Assembly (NCBI GenBank): GCA_947624225.1
Contig: CANQJF010000002.1
Span: 17,347-81,346 of the forward strand
Direction: 5' to 3'
From: an uncultured Clostridia bacterium
GTDB taxonomy: Bacteria > Bacillota > Clostridia > Christensenellales > Borkfalkiaceae
DNA: 64,000 nucleotides
Positions 2,912 through 40,159 of the stretch are shown here, piece by piece. Below the pieces are notes generated by a model. That model was not told the origin of the DNA and searched no databases. It worked only from the letters and a program-made list of their open reading frames with translations. The position numbers were made by a program, and so were the translations under genes. The number at the start of each line of letters is the position of its first letter. Positions within the stretch are counted from its first letter, which is position 1.

Positions 2912-5900
2912 TTAATTGTCGTCGTCCTCGTCTCCGAAGAGATCGCTTGCGGACATGGTATCATCGTCTTCGGTCTTTTCCTCGGTTTCTTCCTTGAAGA
3001 GATCCCCGAAAGAGCCGTCGTCGTCGATGTCCGAGAAGTCGTCGTCATCCTCCTCGTCCTCCTCGCTCTGGAAGAGATCTTGCGAGATGAAGTCCTCATC
3101 CTCGCCCGCATCGTCGAAGATGGAGCCAAGCGTGTCGTCGTCCTCGTCCTCCGTCTCTTGGTCGAAATGGAAGTCGGGTGCGTCGGGATGGGGTTCCTCG
3201 CGGCGGCGGTTGTCGGGCTGGTCGTCATCGTCGAATTCGCGGATGATGAGCTCTTCGTTGTTCTCGGTGAGCACCTTGACGTCAAGCGCAAGGGACTGCA
3301 ACTCTTTGAGGAGCACCTTGAATGCCTCCGGGATCCCCGGTTCGGAGATGTTGTTGCCCTTGACAATGGATTCATACGTCTTGACACGGCCCACGATATC
3401 GTCGGACTTGACGGTCAAGATCTCTTGCAGGATGTGGGCGGCGCCATAGGCTTCGAGGGCCCAGACCTCCATTTCGCCGAAGCGCTGTCCGCCGAACTGT
3501 GCCTTGCCGCCGAGCGGCTGCTGGGTGACCATACTGTACGGGCCGATTGACCGGGCATGGATCTTGTCGTCCACAAGGTGGATGAGCTTGATCATGTACA
3601 TGATCCCGATGGTGACTCTGTTCTCGAAAGGCTCGCCCGTGCGGCCGTCAAAGACCTGGAACTTGCCGTCTACCTTGCCCTCGGGCCCGACGAGGTTGTT
3701 CTCTTCGAACAACTTTTCGATGTCCTGCTCGGTAGCGCCGTCAAACACGGGGGTGGCGATCTTCCAGCCCAGCTGACGGCAGACATAGCCGAGGTGCACT
3801 TCGAGGACCTGCCCGATATTCATACGGGAAGGCACGCCCAAGGGGTTGAGCAAAATTTGCAGGGGAGTACCGTCGGGCAGGAAAGGCATATCCGCCTCGG
3901 GAAGCACGCGGGAGATGACGCCCTTGTTGCCGTGGCGGCCGGCCATCTTGTCGCCGACCTGTATCTTTCTCTTTTGCGCAATATACACGCGCACGAGCTT
4001 GTTGACGCCGGGCGAAAGTTCGTCCTTGTTCTCGCGGGTGAAGATCTTCACATCCACGACGATGCCGCCCTCTCCATGGGGAACGCGGAGCGACGTATCG
4101 CGGACCTCCCTCGACTTCTCTCCGAAGATGGCGCGAAGCAGGCGCTCTTCGGGGGTGAGTTCGGTTTCACCCTTGGGGGTAACTTTGCCGACGAGGATGT
4201 CGCCGCTGCTGACTTCGGCGCCGATGCGCACGATGCCGTTTTCGTCGAGATCCTTTAACGCATCATCGCCCACGTTGGGGATGTCGCGCGTGATCTCCTC
4301 TTCGCCGAGCTTGGTGTCGCGCGCCTCCGTCTCGTGTTCCTCGATGTGGATGGATGTGAATACATCGTCCTGCACGAGCTTTTCGGAGATCAGGATGGCG
4401 TCCTCATAGTTGTAACCCTCCCATTCCATGAATCCGACGAGGATGTTCTTGCCGAGGGCAAGTTCGCCATTGTTGGTGGAGGGGCCGTCTGCAATGACTT
4501 CGCCTTTCTCGACACGGTCGCCCGTGGAGATGATGGGACGCTGGTTGAGGCAGGTCCCCTGGTTGGAACGTTCAAACTTTTTGAGCTTGTATTCGGTCTC
4601 GAAACCCGAATCCTCGCGGATGACGATGCGGTCGGAGGCCACGGCAACCGCAACACCCGCCTCTTTGGCCGTCACCATGACGCCGGAGTCGCGTGCAATG
4701 GCCGCCTCGATGCCGGTAGCCACGATGGAGGGCTCTGTTTTGAGAAGAGGCACGGCCTGCCGCTGCATGTTGGAGCCCATGAGGGCACGGTTGGTATCGT
4801 CGTTTTCGAGGAAAGGAATGAGGGCCGTTGCGACGGAAACGAGCTGCTTGGGGGAAACATCCATGTAGTCGATCCGCTCGCGGGGCATCTCGGTGATGAG
4901 TTCGCGGTAGCGACACCCTACGCGCTCGTGCACGAATCTGCCCTCTTCGTCGAGGGGTTCGTTGGCCTGTGCAACGACATAGCGGTCCTCTTCGTCGGCC
5001 GTCAGATAGTCCACATGGTCTGTGACGATGCCCGTCACCTTGTCCACCTTGCGGTAAGGGGACATGATGAAGCCGTATTCATTGACCTTGGAGAACGTTG
5101 CAAGCGACGAGATGAGGCCGATGTTCTGACCCTCGGGGGTCTCGATGGGGCACATGCGCCCATAGTGGGAGTGGTGAACGTCGCGGACTTCGAAAGTCGC
5201 GCGGTCGCGGTTGAGGCCGCCGGGGCCGAGCGCCGACAGCTTGCGCTTGTGCGTGAGCTCGGCGATGGGATTGGTCTGGTCCATGAACTGCGAGAGCTGG
5301 GAGCTGCCGAAGAATTCACGGATGACGGCGGAGATGGGCCGCACATTGATGAGGTTGGAGGGAGTGACCTCCATGGGATCTGCCGTCGCCATGCGCTCTT
5401 TGATGAGCCTGTCGAGGCGGGACATCCCGATGCGGAGCTGGTTTTGAAGCAATTCGCCCACCGAACGGACCCTGCGGTTGCCGAGGTGGTCGATCTCGTC
5501 GATGGTACCGATGCCATAGCGGAGATCGAGGTTGGTGGAGACGGCGGCAACGATGTCGTCCACGGTGATGCACTTGTGGTTGAGCTTCTCCACGAGGGGC
5601 TTCATCGCCTTTTTCTCGGCGGGAGTGACCCCTTTCACGCGCTTTTCGGCTTCGAGATCGACGGGCGCGTTGGGATCGACGGTGTCGTCGCGGTTCAGGA
5701 TCTCATGGAAAAGGCAGCACGCATGCACGAAAGCAAGACGGCTCATCCTGCGCTTCTCGCGGTTCTTCTTCTCCTCCTGCTTCTCGTCCGCGTCGGGTGC
5801 GGTCTCGCGCGTGTAAAACACGGCATTGATCTCATCCAGAAAATCGTTTGCGACTTCCTCCTCGCTCTTCTGCTTGCAGGCCTCCGCGATCTTCTTGGAG

Positions 5901-35691: not shown

Positions 35692-37103
35692 TCAAGTTTG
35701 AAGAGAAGAACCCGCCGTGATTTCTTTTTCTTGCGAGCCGAGTTTTTTCCACACCCATACCATGACAGGCAGAGTGATGAGGATCGCCGCTGCGTCTGCA
35801 ATGGGAGCTGCCCACGCTACGCCCATGACGCCGAGCCCGAGGGGAACGAGGAACGCGAAGAGTATCAACAGAATATCCCGAAGAAACGCGAGCGGCGCGG
35901 CGAGCTTTGCGCGCCCGATAGACTGCAAAAAGATGGAACAGACCTTTTGCAGACAGGTAAACACGATGAACATCAAGTAGATCCTGAGGCAGGGAATTGC
36001 AAATTGCATATAAAGTTCGGTATCGAGCCCCTCTGAGCCTCCTCCTGCGCCAAACATGGAGATGAACGCACGGGGAAGCGCCTCAAACAGAACGGTAAAC
36101 ACGAGACAAATTCCCGCCGTCCATAGGAGAACAAGTTTTAAGAGCTGTTTCACTCTGCCATATTGTTTTGCACCGTAATTATATCCGACAATGGGCTGTG
36201 CGCCCGCGGCGATCCCAATCGCCACATTGAGCACGATCTGGAAGAGTTTCATGATGACGACGAATGCCGCAAGCGGAATATCTGCCCCGAACTCGCTCGC
36301 CATACCGTAACGCACAAACAGTACGTTATTGACAATCGTCGTGGCGACGATGCAAAGCTGTGTGAGAAAACTCGACGTGCCGAGTGCCATGATTTTAGGC
36401 AGAATTTTGAAGTCGGGGACAAAACTATGCCATTGGATCTTGAAAGTTTTGCTTCGCACGAGATAGCAAGCACAGATGACAAAACTGACAAACTGCCCGA
36501 GAATCGTCGCATAAGCCGCCCCTTGGATGCCGAGATCGAGTGCATAAATGGCGACGGGATCGCCGATGATATTGAGGACTGCACCCACGATCATAGCGAA
36601 CATGGCATATCCTGGCGCGCCATCGGCACGGATAATTGCCGCGAGACAGTTCTGCACGAGCGCAAGCGGCATCATGGCATAGATGATCGTGCCATAATCA
36701 TGTGCAAGGGAGATGTTTGCCTCCGTTCCCCCGAGGAGCATCAAGAGGTTATCACCCCAAAGATAGGCAATGAGAATGACGAATGAGCCCGATAAAAAGG
36801 AAGCGAGCATGGCGTTCCCGACGCCGCGGTGGATATTTTCGCCTTTCCCCTCACCTAAGGAGACGGAGAGCCATGCCGCCGCCCCATCCCCGAAGAACAG
36901 GGAAAGCCCCCACCCGACGACCGTGATCGGGAAGATGACGCCCGTTGCCGCATTGCCCAAGTACCCCACCTTGCTATTGCCGACAAAGATCTGGTCTACA
37001 ATGTTGTAGAGACAGGAAATGATGAGGGAAAGAATACACGGAACGGCAAACTTTACGAGAAGTTTCCCAACCTTTTCTTTGCCGAGATGTCACTGTTTTC
37101 CAT
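35692..37103 (-). pseudogene. MATE family efflux transporter with a frameshift about 5 codons after the start
   Basis: GGAGG RBS plus ATG 37103 gives MENSD..., which terminates after 16 codons. The -1 frame continues HLGKEKVGKLLVKFAVPCILSLIISCLYNIVDQIFVGNSKVGYLGNAATG..., which is the normal MATE N-terminus. The remaining 425 aa are intact. Confidence 0.7.
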
Positions 37104-37155
37104 AAAAAACCTCCAAAAAAGAGCAAAACGGCACAAAACTACGCGTGCCGCCAAC

Positions 37156-37226
37156 AAAAAAACGACACTCCTAAGCGCTTGCGTACCGTAATCAGATTTA
37201 CGCGCATGGGCGCCACATGTGTCGTT
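37156..37226 (-). terminator. Long imperfect hairpin plus U7 inside the MATE 5' leader (attenuator candidate)
   Basis: Minus strand: AACGACAC...(inner stems GGCGC/GCGCU, UGCG/CGCA, CGUAA/UUACG)...GUGUCGUUUUUUU. It lies between the promoter and the RBS. Confidence 0.5.
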
Positions 37227-37249
37227 AAGCTCAATGAAATTATGCCGAT

Positions 37250-37278
37250 ATTTTATCAAAATCCGCCGGAATTGTCAA
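37250..37278 (-). promoter_or_regulatory. Sigma-A-type promoter for the MATE gene
   Basis: Minus strand: TTGACA (37273-37278), 17-nt spacer, TAAAAT (37250-37255). Confidence 0.55.
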
Positions 37279-37565
37279 GCAAATTTCGCATATTTTCCTG
37301 CTTCATCAAGTTTAATTAAAATAACTCCGCGCGACAACGAGAATCTGTCAAATATCGCGGAACTCCGCGAGAAAAATTTTTACCCGCTTCTTTGATCAAG
37401 GGCAGAACAAAGTGTCCCAAGGTAACCGCGGTAAAGTTTTTGCGAAAGGGCAGGCATTACTTTGTCTGAGTTTTTTGACAGGGATTACTTCAATACCCCG
37501 GAGGATGATGAATAACACAAAGACCCGAAATCCGTGAGGACATCGGGCCTTTTTTCTTCAACTTC

Positions 37566-38813
37566 TTATTTCCCCTTGACGCGGGCGACGTCGACGTTGT
37601 CTTTCTTGCGGTCGGCAAGCGCCTTAACGGGGTGATCGGGATTCTGGATGCGGTAGTCCTGCCCGAGCTTGGCAATGGCCTTTTCGATGACGGTGTGCGT
37701 CCCCACCGACGTGGGCTTGCCGTTGATCTTGGAATTGTAGCCGAAATAGCGGAAGCTATCGGGCACCTTGTCGAGCTCTTCCCAGCCCTCCTCTACGCCC
37801 GTGAGCCGCACGCTCTTCAAAACCCCGCGGATATACTCCTTCTGCGGACGGAGCTTTAATAGTTCGGGGAACTCCCCGCCCTCGGGGAGCACCTGCTGCC
37901 ACACCTTGCCCTCATAGGTTTTGAGCAGATCGGCCGCCTCGTGAAGGTGCGCCACTTCCTCCTCGAAATGCTGTTCCCAAATGGCCTTGATGCGCTCGTC
38001 TTTCTCATCTTCATAGCATGAATAATAGAGGTAACACTCGGTGTATTCATTCATTAAGAGACACTCAAACTCGGACATGGTAGGGTCCTTTAAGCTCCCG
38101 TATCCCGTGACGTGCTGTTCCTCGATCATTGCGATCTCGTTGTAGAGTTTGCGCCCCAAGGGGCTCGCATAGAGGTTGGCGACGTTCATATAGAAGTTCA
38201 TCGTCTGCTGTTCGGCGCCCGTGATGATGTTGATGTTGAGCTTGGTTTTGAGATCGTTGAGATAGTTGTTGATATAGAAGTCGACGTCGTCGTCCGGATG
38301 GCGATATTCGGCGACGGTCGGCCGCCCCGGCATGATCTCGGTGTAACTGCCGACAAGCCGCTTGGGATCCCCGCCCTTTTCGAGCTCCATGAGGTCGGAA
38401 TAGCGGTAGAGGTGGTCGAAATCTTCGAGGAGGGCGAAATCCAGTTGCTTCTTCACATAGGAATTCTTCTCCGTGATGGCGAGATTGGCGGTGAGGTCGA
38501 CAGCGAGCTGTTCATAGCCGATGGTGTGTTCCAAGATGGTCTCGTTTGCGGGTTTTAAGGCGGCCACGCGCTTTTGTTGGATCTGCTCTCCGCGGCGGAT
38601 GCGCGCAAGACGGCGCCGCACGTCGTTGTTGGCGCACATGCGGGTGAACGAATGCCCGAGGCGCACGCTCTCGAACTCCGTGCCGGACATGAGGATGACG
38701 CGCGTTCGCGTGTAGGGATCGACGGCGTTCTTGTCGTAAGGCTTGACGAGCACTTTGTTCCAATTGGTAAAGATCTTGTCCGCTTTCTGCGGCTTCAATT
38801 CAAACGGATTCAT
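37566..38813 (-). CDS. Ferritin-like (di-iron ExxH motifs) protein of unknown function
   Basis: From ATG 38813 (RBS AAGGAGG): MNPFELKPQKADKIF... It contains IEEQHVTGY and EEEVAHLHEA motifs. I do not recognise a named family. Confidence 0.6.
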   Translation of the reverse strand: MNPFELKPQKADKIFTNWNKVLVKPYDKNAVDPYTRTRVILMSGTEFESVRLGHSFTRMCANNDVRRRLARIRRGEQIQQKRVAALKPANETILEHTIGYEQLAVDLTANLAITEKNSYVKKQLDFALLEDFDHLYRYSDLMELEKGGDPKRLVGSYTEIMPGRPTVAEYRHPDDDVDFYINNYLNDLKTKLNINIITGAEQQTMNFYMNVANLYASPLGRKLYNEIAMIEEQHVTGYGSLKDPTMSEFECLLMNEYTECYLYYSCYEDEKDERIKAIWEQHFEEEVAHLHEAADLLKTYEGKVWQQVLPEGGEFPELLKLRPQKEYIRGVLKSVRLTGVEEGWEELDKVPDSFRYFGYNSKINGKPTSVGTHTVIEKAIAKLGQDYRIQNPDHPVKALADRKKDNVDVARVKGK

Positions 38814-38868
38814 TTGAACCTCCTTTTGCGAAGGTTGTTCCCTTTCGCGAAAAGAAGTATTCATCCAT

Positions 38869-38897
38869 TTGCCAAGCCGCGAAAAATATGTTATAAT
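38869..38897 (+). promoter_or_regulatory. Near-consensus extended -10 promoter driving the non-coding region upstream of mtnN
   Basis: TTGCCA (38869-38874), 17-nt spacer, TGtTATAAT (38889-38897). Confidence 0.55.
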
Positions 38898-38904
38898 GAT
38901 TTAC

Positions 38905-39300
38905 GGTGGAGCCCGTGTGTCCGTCATTTGGGGACGGCTACTTCGCGCCACGCGCTCGTGTCGACCTAGTAGCACAATCAGAGCCTCGGTCGGTCGAAAT
39001 GTTGTACTACCAAGCGTGGTCGCAATAAGATTTCTCGCGGATGAGCAATCCGTTGATACTCAAACCCTGTCGGCTCGAAATGACATACTTCGGACATGGT
39101 CCACAGAAAACACAAGGTCGACGAAGTAGCGCGCCGCAAATGTGTGCTGCGGGGAACCGTTAAAACGCATAGTTGCAAGCGGGACGAGGAGAACGCGGCT
39201 TTCCGATGGGGAGTGTACTATGGACGTACATGACCCGAGGAAAACGCAAGGTCGACGAAGTAGCGCGCCGCAAATGTGCGTTTCGCATAATGAAAACAGA
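38905..39300 (+). ncRNA. Candidate structured leader/ncRNA with a duplicated 3' arm (unclassified)
   Basis: The 5' arm GCTACTTCG...TCGACCT (38937-38967) is complementary to AGGTCGACGAAGTAGC at 39115-39130 and again at 39249-39264. A 51-nt direct repeat spans 39094-39144 and 39228-39278 (45/51 identical). No ORF here has an RBS. Confidence 0.35.
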
Positions 39301-39310
39301 GAGGTATATT

Positions 39311-39970
39311 ATGATTGGTTGTGTCATCGCCATGGACCGCGAAGCCGAGCTCCTGCTCGAAAGCATGGAGCTGGAAAATATCCGCACGATGTTCGGAAAG
39401 ACGATGCACATCGGGAAAGCATTCGGGCAAGACGTTGCGCTCGTCGTCTGCGGGGTGGGCAAGGTGAATGCCGCCGCGGGGACGTGTGCCGCCATCGCAC
39501 AGGGGGCAGACCTTGTGTTAAACTTTGGCGTGGCGGGCGGTCTGAAAGCGGAGCGCACGGAGGTCGGCGAGATGTATCTCATCGACAGGGCCGTGCAATA
39601 CGACTTCGATTGCACCCAACTCAACGGCTTGCCCATCGGCACGCTCGACGGGGAGACGGAAAACTTTCTCCCCCTCTTCTGCCCGCCCTCTCTCCGGCTC
39701 CCCCGGAGGGCGCTCGGCACGGGAGACCGCTTCAACGATTCTCCCGCCGATCATGCCCTGCTGCTCGAACTCGGCTGCGACATCCGCGAGATGGAGGCAG
39801 GCGCCATGGCCGAGGTGTGCAAGTATGCGGGCGTGCCTTTCTGCTCCGTAAAGGCCATCTCCGACGTGTACGGCTCGGGCTCGACGACCGAGCAATTCCG
39901 CAAGAACTGCAAAATCGCCCTGCTCGAACTCAAATCCAACCTCAAAGAAATTTTTCAAAGTTTGCAATAA
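39311..39970 (+). CDS. mtnN: 5'-methylthioadenosine/S-adenosylhomocysteine nucleosidase
   Basis: From ATG 39311: MIGCVIAMDREAELLLESM..., VVCGVGKVNAAAGT, GTGDRF, EMEAGAMAEVC. Confidence 0.85.
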   Translation: MIGCVIAMDREAELLLESMELENIRTMFGKTMHIGKAFGQDVALVVCGVGKVNAAAGTCAAIAQGADLVLNFGVAGGLKAERTEVGEMYLIDRAVQYDFDCTQLNGLPIGTLDGETENFLPLFCPPSLRLPRRALGTGDRFNDSPADHALLLELGCDIREMEAGAMAEVCKYAGVPFCSVKAISDVYGSGSTTEQFRKNCKIALLELKSNLKEIFQSLQ

Positions 39971-40159
39971 AACCCTCTTTGAAAAAAGCCCGCACGCGGG
40001 GGCAAACCACGGCGCCGCGCTCCGTTTCTATTGGAAAGCGGCGCTCTGCGCGTTCGATCTCAAACAAATCGGATATTTCCGTTTTAAGGAGATGGGCAGA
40101 AAAAGGGCGCCGAAAAGGCAGGCGCTTTGCAGCCCAAGAACGAATAAGGAGAAACATCT

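Follow-up and report, generated by a model that had tools for sequence, protein, structure and literature searches.

Hairpin-forming interspersed repeats as the probable source of a long mtnN leader in an uncultured Clostridia bacterium

Whether an unusually long, non-coding leader in front of an mtnN gene is a regulatory RNA dedicated to that gene or the product of an insertion is the question raised by the locus described here, which lies in a 64,000-nt stretch of DNA from an uncultured Clostridia bacterium (referred to below as the window). A preliminary description, made from the sequence alone, identified in this leader one 5' arm able to pair with either of two 3' arms, and read it as a structured RNA that might switch between mutually exclusive helices in the service of methionine salvage. 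Comparison with related genomes leads us to a different answer: the region is probably a lineage-specific insertion of non-coding, hairpin-forming interspersed repeats in an mtnN 5' UTR that is normally short.

The mtnN promoter and its native leader

The native parts of the promoter-to-gene junction, given with their window coordinates, are the following.

38869..38897, plus strand: sigma-70-type mtnN promoter (TTGCCA, 17-nt spacer, TGtTATAAT), conserved in relatives
38898..38908, plus strand: first part of the native short 5' UTR (GATTTACG...), retained just left of the insertion edge
39288..39310, plus strand: 3' remainder of the native short UTR, including the ribosome-binding site (RBS) AGAGAGG at 39298-39304; the counterpart of the AGAAAAAGAGGTGTATT-ATG stretch of relatives
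39311..39970, plus strand: mtnN-like nucleosidase gene of the PNP_UDP_1 family (Pfam PF01048, E = 2.6e-30)

The near-consensus promoter that had been proposed stands up well to comparison, since it matches 11 of 12 consensus positions, has a TG extension of its -10 box, and is represented upstream of mtnN in 74/81 related loci by the pattern TTGCnn-N14-TGTTATAAT. The -10 box and the mtnN ATG are separated by 17-35 nt in 37 related loci versus 413 nt in the window, and 497 nt lie between the divergent 415-aa gene and mtnN here, where 45 of 78 loci have 100-160 nt. When the leader was compared by BLAST with 80 mtnN loci the promoter was recovered, but otherwise only pieces at other positions and in other orientations were found. 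In essentially all 80 related species the mtnN leader lacks the block of ~380 nt. The comparison shows that the insert interrupts an otherwise compact and conserved promoter-to-gene junction. Exact-protein look-ups returned no record for MtnN, and those with the 415-aa protein and UDG led to contigs of the same species.

An empty site, L047, has the sequence TGTTATAATAATTTACGAAAAG...ATG, and L001 has TGTTATAATGATTTATGGG followed by a repeat block of its own; from such alignments we infer the position of the left insertion boundary to within a few nt. At the other end of the insert, the native 39288..39310 region carries a 13-nt tandem duplication in strains L084 and L085. In transcripts of mtnN the whole region would form the 5' UTR. 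No credible ORF was found in the leader, in agreement with the preliminary description, and the plus strand of the leader has no terminator-like site; in the predicted leader fold the RBS at 39298-39304 falls outside the helices.

Two tandem copies of one palindromic unit

According to the explanation we favour, the ~380 nt would comprise two tandem members of one family, of which the downstream member is intact and the upstream member composite. A family unit consists of a hairpin of ~121 nt and a linker of 10-28 nt.

38909..39161 (left edge approximate), plus strand: copy 1, a family member of composite structure, with a 5' arm complementary to its 3' half
38934..39008, plus strand: module X, nested within the copy 1 apex, an unrelated interspersed repeat with matches in L001
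39014..39089, plus strand: module Y, a second nested interspersed repeat, with matches in L001
39091..39151, plus strand: 3' half of copy 1, the upstream member of a 61-nt direct repeat, 84% identical to 39225-39285
39163..39283, plus strand: unit 2, an intact 121-nt irregular hairpin and canonical family member, with homologues and covariation
39279..39287, plus strand: the conserved 3' terminal motif of the family, GCGTTTCGC, which also ends units in L082 and L095

Of the structured leader RNA that had been proposed, what stands is unit 2. This is the only exceptional fold within the leader (MFE -48.6 kcal/mol, z = -4.4, where family units range from -4.4 to -7.4), whereas the fold of the leader as a whole is unremarkable (z = -1.7), as is that of its first 252 nt (z = -1.5), and copy 1 reaches a z-score of only -1.5. 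Homologues of unit 2 are present in L013, L014, L018, L019, L082, L081, L095, L096 and L097. In an alignment of 10 unit copies 94% of the cells are paired and 12 of the 41 pairs show double (compensatory) changes, a result equalled by none of 500 shuffles; the hairpin is shown in this way to be kept by compensatory change. Counts of 18 G.U-type cells and 3 A.C-type cells favour the plus strand as the folded one. Among four species unit 2 is 89-97% identical, as compared with 54-78% in the third codon positions of the genes that flank it; its loops show almost no variation, and nor do ~35 nt of its 3' half, unpaired bases included. Conservation above that of third codon positions, together with the invariant loops, argues for a sequence-specific function beyond 'junk'.

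The duplicated 3' arm is confirmed as a direct repeat of 61 nt (39091-39151 and 39225-39285, 84% identity) with an exact core of 31 nt (39114-39144 and 39248-39278), and it is far beyond chance: the core was matched in 0 of 100 shuffles. Both copies have this identical 31-nt 3' arm, and the proposed 5' arm can indeed pair with either of them, since 38925-38945 is 81% complementary to 39122-39142 and equally so to 39256-39276. A second arm pairing joins 38960-38970 to 39112-39122. The smaller features that had been described are also present, namely a hairpin CCGTC/GACGG at 38921-38937, read directly from the sequence, and the sub-repeats TCGAAATGTTGTACT at 38994 and TCGAAATGACATACT at 39075. 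A 9-bp perfect inverted match in ~500 nt, for which a rough count gives a chance expectation of roughly 0.5, is for that reason not significant alone.

That a single 5' arm can pair with either 3' arm would follow from the presence of two tandem copies of one palindromic repeat, as a product of tandem duplication of the palindromic unit. The idea of a mutually exclusive switching helix is not supported, as the arm geometry follows from the tandem palindromic copies. The long-range TCGACCT/AGGTCGA helix fares no better, with 2-3 bp broken in sister strains and no compensating change. A long-range helix not conserved in relatives, or a degraded mobile element, had been named in advance as an outcome that would speak against the first interpretation, and such an outcome is what the comparison returned.

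Copy 1 combines a degenerate 5' arm (about 38921-38967) with an intact 3' half and a linker of 10 nt, and modules X and Y are nested in it. The first array members in L082, L095 and L088 have the same layout, their 5' half being divergent and their 3' half intact. Module X, which supplies the GCTACTTCG arm of the preliminary description, matches L001 with 87% identity at 1181-1113 (minus strand) and 76% at 3239-3310 (plus strand), and more weakly at 209-294. Module Y matches the same locus at 386-319 (74% identity) and 1237-1177 (69%), both on the minus strand, and the relationship of its 3' end to the 3' end of module X accounts for the sub-repeats. Both modules are multi-copy in L001, where they occur in both orientations and at least 3 times, and the L001 modules are scattered across at least 11 other species. 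Within the 3' half of copy 1, 6 of about 12 positions just 5' of the core differ in the sister strains L084 and L085, differences which suggest that gene conversion took place between the two copies in one lineage.

Dispersal of the family and gain or loss of whole units

Homologues of unit 2 occur at six independent sites, one of which is the mtnN leader of the window. The remaining sites are the junction of ung and its upstream 'gene X' (L013, L014, L018 and L019), an intergenic region between convergent genes (L082), the dnaN-rpmH gap, where the unit lies antisense after dnaN (L081), a position upstream of a YpsA-like gene (L081 and L089), and the 3' region of a 221-aa gene (L095-L097), which holds a tandem array of 2.5 copies with a period of 149 nt. 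These sites show that the repeat family is dispersed and that it can form tandem arrays. Within the 64-kb window the family is present at this one locus only, its multi-copy status having been seen in relatives. A metagenome pattern scan found it in two contigs only, and the repeat family is therefore narrow.

Units come and go as wholes. The array in L095 has one unit more than those in L096 and L097; a 261-nt unit present in L081 and L089, where it is flanked by a 9-nt direct repeat of GCGTTTCGC, is missing from L088 and L090; and the dnaN-rpmH gap provides another whole-unit indel. Filled and empty alleles exist here inside a single species. Gain or loss of whole units at the terminal motif of the family is thereby shown. 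The gene X-ung junction presents a decay series, which runs from no element through basal-stem hairpins of 16, 21 and 30 nt and a 3' remnant to the full 121 nt. Every end-truncated copy (copy 1 of the window, L082 3598-3647, L008, L093 and the first unit of the L095 array) retains its 3' end. Non-orthologous intergenic non-coding copies, empty sites and an imperfect-palindrome fold, by which interspersed palindromic repeats are recognised, were all found.

As regards the ends of the element, the stem at its base, AAACGC.../...GCGTTT, serves as a terminal inverted repeat, and no combination of such a repeat with a target-site duplication recurs consistently from site to site. In the one filled/empty pair the flanking 9-nt repeat coincides with the end of the element itself, and a deletion at microhomology could explain it equally well; no duplication like it was found at the window or ung sites. 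Signs of a target-site duplication at the window and gene X-ung junctions are ambiguous: ATAATGA is present at both window junctions, but the insert-free L047 already has ATTTACG after its -10 box.

The leader had been thought to belong to no known RNA family, and covariance-model searches bear this out at all thresholds used: Rfam 15, whose models cover riboswitches, T-box, 6S, SRP, tmRNA, RNase P, ribozymes and OLE, ROOL, GOLLD and HEARO RNAs among others, gave no match at the gathering score in the 64-kb window, none at E<=10 in 38700-39450, and none at E<=0.1 in nine related loci with copies of the repeats. Two further identities were considered for the unit and rejected. Its ATG, ACATGACC, opens frames that stop at, near or fused to the ung/mtnN start, but a leader peptide or translational coupling is not supported, given that all window-L019 differences in the frame are non-synonymous, 2 of 3 frames stop at ATGATAG, and both the AUG and the SD-like GGAG are paired within helices. 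The 149-nt repeat is likewise not a CRISPR-like or type III antitoxin array, as its linkers are near-identical rather than spacers and it has no toxin or cas neighbours.

If the repeats entered the mtnN junction by insertion, they would be co-transcribed from the mtnN promoter and give an mRNA with long, stable hairpins. By analogy with ERIC, BOX and Correia elements, such hairpins may alter mRNA stability or translation. Any effect of this kind on expression would be a by-product of insertion and not the action of a ligand-sensing switch.

Alternative readings and comparison with known systems

It is possible, although on the whole unlikely, that the 121-nt element is a useful duplicated RNA module (an mRNA stabiliser, RNase site, protein platform or multi-copy sRNA) and that its mtnN copy is adaptive. 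A constraint stronger than that on the synonymous sites of its neighbours, the nearly invariant ~35 nt of the 3' half with their unpaired bases, and the excess of G.U over A.C cells are in keeping with such a role. So are the placement of the elements at the ung sites, where they end 3-38 nt ahead of the RBS, and the RNA-level effects documented for ERIC and Correia (PMC3184786). At two of the six independent sites the unit stands ahead of an operon that includes ung. The unit lies in sense to the flanking gene at 5/6 independent sites; however, this bias is not significant (p about 0.1, our own calculation), and one site is antisense. Moreover, the element is dispensable, being missing or decayed at orthologous sites of close relatives and polymorphic among strains, it has no conserved promoter or terminator of its own, and its conservation could be explained by gene conversion among copies or by mobilisation constraints.

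Because constraint exceeds that at synonymous sites, units are added at GCGTTTCGC and truncated copies keep the 3' half, the unit might be thought of as a self-targeting, tandem-amplifying element. It could then be either a 3'-anchored mobile RNA (e.g. RT-dependent and SINE-like) or a protein-partnered RNA module that tunes adjoining genes, here mtnN-ung. We regard this as quite doubtful.

A structure that acts at the DNA level, with RNA folding irrelevant, is very improbable. Such a structure would be either a single-stranded hairpin that serves as a recombinase substrate (attC-like or IS200/IS605/REP-RAYT-like) or a 3'-anchored retro-element. Strand-asymmetric wobble pairs are likewise expected of ssDNA hairpins, insertion or expansion takes place at the element's own motif GCGTTTCGC, the 3' end is kept by all end-truncated copies, and the size is like that of Vibrio-type attC repeats, which are about 120 nt. 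Against this, the attC consensus is missing from the ends of the element, which in the window are ...GTTAAAACGC and GCGTTTCGC. An attC site was rejected on the same grounds, as the R''/R' boxes (RYYYAAC...GTTRRRY) are lacking, the ends read CCGTTAAAACGC... and ...GCGTTTCGC, and the context is not one of promoterless cassettes: the neighbours of the repeat sites (mtnN, ung, dnaN, rpmH and rsmG) are housekeeping genes. In addition, the related loci examined, of 5-21 kb, contain no transposase, HUH transposase, integrase or reverse transcriptase. Plasmid, phage and viral collections also gave no matches, whether to the leader in sensitive blastn searches of plasmids and phages or to unit and module X motifs in three IMG/VR pattern scans.

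A dedicated cis-regulatory RNA of ~390 nt, riboswitch-like or a mutually exclusive switch, that senses a methionine-salvage metabolite on behalf of mtnN is extremely improbable and is largely refuted by the comparative sequence data: a strong promoter, a location directly upstream of mtnN, the absence of an ORF, a single 5' arm with two identical 3' partners, and the covariation and invariant loop nucleotides of unit 2 can be cited for it, but the block is missing before mtnN in relatives, the element recurs at unrelated places (in tandem arrays, in a gap between convergent genes and in antisense orientation to dnaN), its conserved inner part is deleted at the orthologous ung site in sister species, sister strains weaken the long-range helix without compensation, there is no terminator or RBS-sequestering expression platform, and neither an exceptional whole-leader fold nor an Rfam match was obtained.

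The reading of the region as inserted interspersed repeats averts a false annotation of an 'orphan riboswitch upstream of mtnN', and it yields a covariance model and coordinates for an undescribed repeat family of uncultured Christensenellales-like gut Clostridia (rabbit, chicken and other gut metagenomes). The intergenic regions of these genomes are inflated and reshuffled by mosaic hairpin repeats that differ by strain, which affects MAG assembly and strain typing and may also touch the expression of housekeeping genes such as mtnN, ung and dnaN. Tightly conserved and with natural filled and empty alleles, the 121-nt unit offers a tractable test of selfish DNA versus recruited RNA module.

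Among known systems, leaders with SAM-I/S-box, SAH or SAM-SAH riboswitches have only position in common with the present one, as structured 5' UTRs before a methionine-salvage gene; unlike them, it has no covariance-model match at E<=10, no conservation among mtnN leaders and no expression platform. REP/BIME/REPIN and Correia (CREE) elements are closer. They form mosaic palindromic intergenic clusters, in both orientations and co-transcribed, and are hotspots of recombination and nested insertion that affect neighbouring expression (PMC3184786, PMC3116915). However, REPs are 20-40 nt and linked to RAYT transposases, a link not found here, and the 26-bp TIRs and TA duplication of Correia elements were likewise not found. 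The BOX elements of Streptococcus pneumoniae (and RUP/SPRITE) are modular, mosaic Firmicute repeats that are transcribed, with a stable RNA predicted, that insert in 5' and 3' UTRs, and that vary in module number (PMC3184786), all of which recalls the family described here. The module sequences and sizes differ, and the boxA-boxB-boxC organisation is not seen.

Compensatory substitutions in ERIC hairpins were reportedly described by Wilson and Sharp in 2006. ERIC sequences (IRU) of Enterobacteriaceae are 127-bp imperfect palindromes that are co-transcribed and affect mRNA decay (PMC3184786). The family resembles them in its size (about 120-127 nt) and in forming one long irregular hairpin, in occupying transcribed intergenic sites (UTRs and operon junctions), in having size variants produced by internal insertions and deletions, and in being patchy among relatives yet conserved where present; ERIC, too, can change the fate of an mRNA (PMC3184786). 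Unlike ERIC, it occurs in another host phylum and shows no sequence similarity to 5,426 E. coli genomes (sensitive blastn with 39091-39290), it forms head-to-tail tandem arrays with a 149-nt period, and it does not show the TA-flanked TIR/TSD pattern that has been reported in ERIC-type MITEs.

MIRU elements, for their part, are 40-100 bp and are not long hairpins held by covariation, and they are described as having small ORFs that stay in phase with their neighbours, whereas the ATG frame here shows only non-synonymous differences. In their behaviour the MIRU-VNTR of Mycobacterium tuberculosis nevertheless provide a close likeness, as interspersed units and short tandem arrays in operon junctions with strain-variable copy number, where a junction of a few bp may grow to several hundred bp in one lineage only; an example upstream of the DNA glycosylase gene fpg went from 6 bp to 358 bp (PMC2734929). 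We take the hairpin repeats to be a family not described before, with behaviour like that of ERIC, BOX or MIRU repeats.

An insertion in the mtnN leader

The gene 3′ of the leader encodes a PNP_UDP_1 nucleosidase (mtnN), whose other neighbours are UDG, a MatE transporter and a divergent 415-aa protein. The mtnN promoter proposed in the preliminary description (38869-38897; TTGCCA, 17-nt spacer, TATAAT with TG extension) is present with a score of 11/12, and no credible ORF was found in the leader that follows it. We compared this region with 80 related mtnN loci (numbered with the prefix L) from MAGs of uncultured gut Clostridia, some labelled Candidatus Gallimonas or Christensenellaceae. When upstream sequences were read and measured, a promoter of the form TTGCnn-N14-TGTTATAAT was present in 74 of 81 mtnN loci. 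The distance from promoter end to mtnN ATG is 17-35 nt in 37 loci but 413 nt in the window, and from the 415-aa gene to mtnN 45 of 78 loci have a start-to-start distance of 100-160 nt, the window one of 497 nt. The L047 leader reads TGTTATAATAATTTACGAAAAGTTGAATGTGAGGTTCCTATG; that of the window reads TGTTATAATGATTTACG, about 380 nt and then GAAAACAGAGAGGTATATTATG. BLAST of the leader against the 80 loci matched only the promoter in the orthologous place (L001, L047, L058), the remaining pieces matching elsewhere and in other orientations. Thus 38869-38897 is the ordinary mtnN promoter, and the ‘structured region’ first described is an insertion into a short mtnN leader. The insert is present at 98% identity in L083-L085, from the window's own species. 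At the orthologous spot L001, the closest other species, has a different set of repeat modules, about 900 nt in length, and the mtnN leaders of L010, L015 and L029 are likewise laden with repeats. The best-supported reading, which we consider probable, is that the insert belongs to a family of small non-coding, hairpin-forming interspersed repeats.

Several further features were observed around the gene. About 60 nt upstream of mtnN, L009 and L017 have a 30-nt tandem duplication spanning the -10 box, RBS and ATG (GTTATAATAGAAAAAGAGGTGTATTATGA twice), and in the sister strains L084 and L085 13 nt are duplicated immediately 5′ of the mtnN RBS; this junction appears slippage-prone. The mtnN stop nearly abuts the ung start in L001, L002, L004, L006 and L020, so the mtnN-ung spacer of the window (39971-40159; 190 nt, GC-rich hairpins) probably represents a second non-coding insertion into this operon that is specific to the lineage. 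The 415-aa protein (37566-38813, - strand) is conserved clade-wide without a Pfam match; translation truly begins at the ATG of MNPFELK (38813), which has an AAGGAGG RBS, and not at the start of the longer ORF from 38864. In our reading its EEQH and EVAH motifs resemble di-iron carboxylate (ferritin-like) sites. Downstream of this gene, inside the AT-rich 36970-37565 gap, a 147-nt non-coding block (37157-37303) shares 87% identity with L001 7-153 and recurs in L083 and L084, conservation that is unusual for intergenic DNA of the clade. Rfam has no match for the block, which may represent a small RNA or an element of a 3′ UTR.

Tandem units and the pairing of their arms

Repeat features of the mtnN leader
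~38909-39160: copy 1, composite family member
38934-39008: module X, an interspersed repeat in the copy 1 apex
39014-39089: module Y, another interspersed repeat in the copy 1 apex
39091-39151: 3′ half of copy 1, the duplicated arm
39163-39283, + strand folded: unit 2, a 121-nt irregular hairpin

The direct repeat reported earlier extends over 61 nt (39091-39151 and 39225-39285, 84% identity), with an exact 31-nt core that no shuffle reproduced. The 5′ arm at 38925-38945 has 81% complementarity to each of two 3′ arms, and the further pairing of 38960-38970 with 39112-39122 is present. The statistical weight of these features is uneven: the fold of the leader as a whole is just slightly better than that of shuffles (z = -1.7), its first 252 nt give z = -1.5, and unit 2 alone gives z = -4.4. 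Because a tandem pair of palindromic units gives such pairing automatically, the geometry of one 5′ arm and two 3′ arms is the automatic outcome of two tandem copies. On inspection, the copy 1 5′ end, CCGTCATTTG-GGGACGG, resembles AACGCATAGTTGCAAGCGGGACGAGG of unit 2 with numerous deletions, and the putative GCTACTTCG arm is part of module X. Relatives show the same arrangement, in which canonical unit(s) come after a first unit whose 5′ half is divergent and whose 3′ half is intact (L082 3598-3647, then 3675-3794; L095; the dnaN-rpmH gap of L088 and L090). The proposed TCGACCT/AGGTCGA helix loses 2-3 bp without a compensating change in the sister strains L084 and L085, where the copy 1 arm has GGAAAAGGTAACATCGAC in place of CAGAAAACACAAGGTCGAC. 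Modules X and Y occur in at least three copies in L001, in both orientations and on both sides of a 427-aa gene. This gene and its promoter are also flanked by an inverted duplication of a ~375-nt repeat mosaic (454-833 and 3417-3791, 93-99% identity), which could lead to inversion of the gene segment via homologous recombination.

Unit 2 has homologues directly 5′ of ung, not mtnN (L013, L014, L018, L019), between convergent genes (L082), antisense in the dnaN-rpmH gap (L081), 5′ of a YpsA-like gene, there with another apex of ~150 nt (L081, L089), and as a tandem array of 149-nt period behind a 221-aa gene (L095-L097). Among seven copies 93% of cells are paired, with double changes in 10 of 41 pairs, and among ten copies 94%, with double changes in 12 of 41; in an alignment that had been fitted to the model, these values were reached by 0 of 500 shuffles, and slid controls collapse. 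G.U-type cells outnumber A.C-type cells (18 vs 3) and folding of the + strand is more favourable by 10 kcal/mol than that of the - strand; the folded strand is therefore the + strand. Full units are 89-97% identical between species, as against only 54-78% at third codon positions of ung and mtnN, which requires that the full unit be under some constraint or be homogenised between its copies. Strong constraint, invariant unpaired bases, sense orientation at 5 of 6 sites and a position just 5′ of ribosome-binding sites would also suit a recruited functional RNA module, an alternative that we regard as unlikely.

Gain, loss and decay of units

The interspersed repeat family can also amplify in tandem, and sits among other mosaic modules littering intergenic regions of the clade. 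A 261-nt unit present in L081 and L089 is missing in L088 and L090 despite the same DnaN protein; this indel has the direct repeat GCGTTTCGC at its borders, a 9-mer identical with the 3′ terminal motif of the family itself (window 39279-39287). A second indel of unit size lies at an ACGCGTTTCG junction, and the L095 array has one unit more than those of L096 and L097. L095 and L096, whose DnaN proteins are identical, differ in the dnaN-rpmH gap by 198 nt of GC-rich hairpin modules (L095 11270-11290 vs L096 11270-11490), an indel bounded by two copies of a CTCCCTTTGCACAAGGGAG hairpin. An inverted copy, CGAAACG, usually comes after the terminal GCGTTTCG(C) of the last unit in an array; the resulting small hairpin (L081 1893-1920; L088 8322-8360; L082 3787-3816) uses bases of the unit's basal stem, so that the two structures compete.

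Across species, the orthologous junction of ung with its preceding gene forms a decay series. All 121 nt are kept in L013, L014, L018 and L019, 30 nt in L031, 21 nt in L003, a 16-nt hairpin (AACCGCATAGGCGGTT) in L009 and the 3′ remnant alone in L008; in most species the stop and start codons overlap. The conserved interior of the unit is therefore dispensable for ung expression. A different repeat type, a tandem array of four ~27-nt units (AAAACAAGCCGTCAACAGAATGACGCGG-like), fills the same operon junction about 170 nt upstream of ung in L033.

Retention of the 3′ end in all end-truncated copies and addition of units at the element's own 3′ motif might point to a DNA-level hairpin substrate or a 3′-anchored, retro-mobilised element; attC boxes are absent, however, and no transposase, integrase or reverse transcriptase was found in any fetched locus, and we judge this very improbable. 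No consistent target duplication was seen across insertion sites. A dedicated mtnN riboswitch or switch, as suggested in the preliminary description, is very improbable, being contradicted by empty leaders, other sites and strain dynamics in the comparative data and lacking an expression platform. The sequence features first reported stand, and their interpretation is partly supported. A leader peptide was ruled out, as the differences in its frame are without exception non-synonymous and helices enclose both the SD and the AUG.

Proposed consequences and comparison with known repeat families

Under the interspersed-repeat reading, two units with nested modules would have been inserted into the mtnN 5′ UTR of the window's species. 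Transcription from the mtnN promoter presumably runs through them, which would place stable hairpins in the mtnN mRNA; no terminator was found in the leader between promoter and gene. ERIC, BOX and Correia elements suggest by analogy that mRNA stability or translation may change (PMC3184786).

Rfam gave 0 matches at the gathering score across the 64-kb window and 0 at E<=10 over the leader locus. Searches of E. coli genomes, plasmids and phages gave no sequence membership in ERIC, BOX or MIRU-VNTR, and we found no description of such repeats in Christensenellales in the literature searched. The likeness is one of organisation: the units resemble ERIC in size, long imperfect palindrome, transcribed junctions and size variants, BOX in their mosaic modules in a Firmicute, and MIRU-VNTR in being both interspersed and tandem, strain-polymorphic, and in inflating an operon junction in one lineage (PMC2734929).
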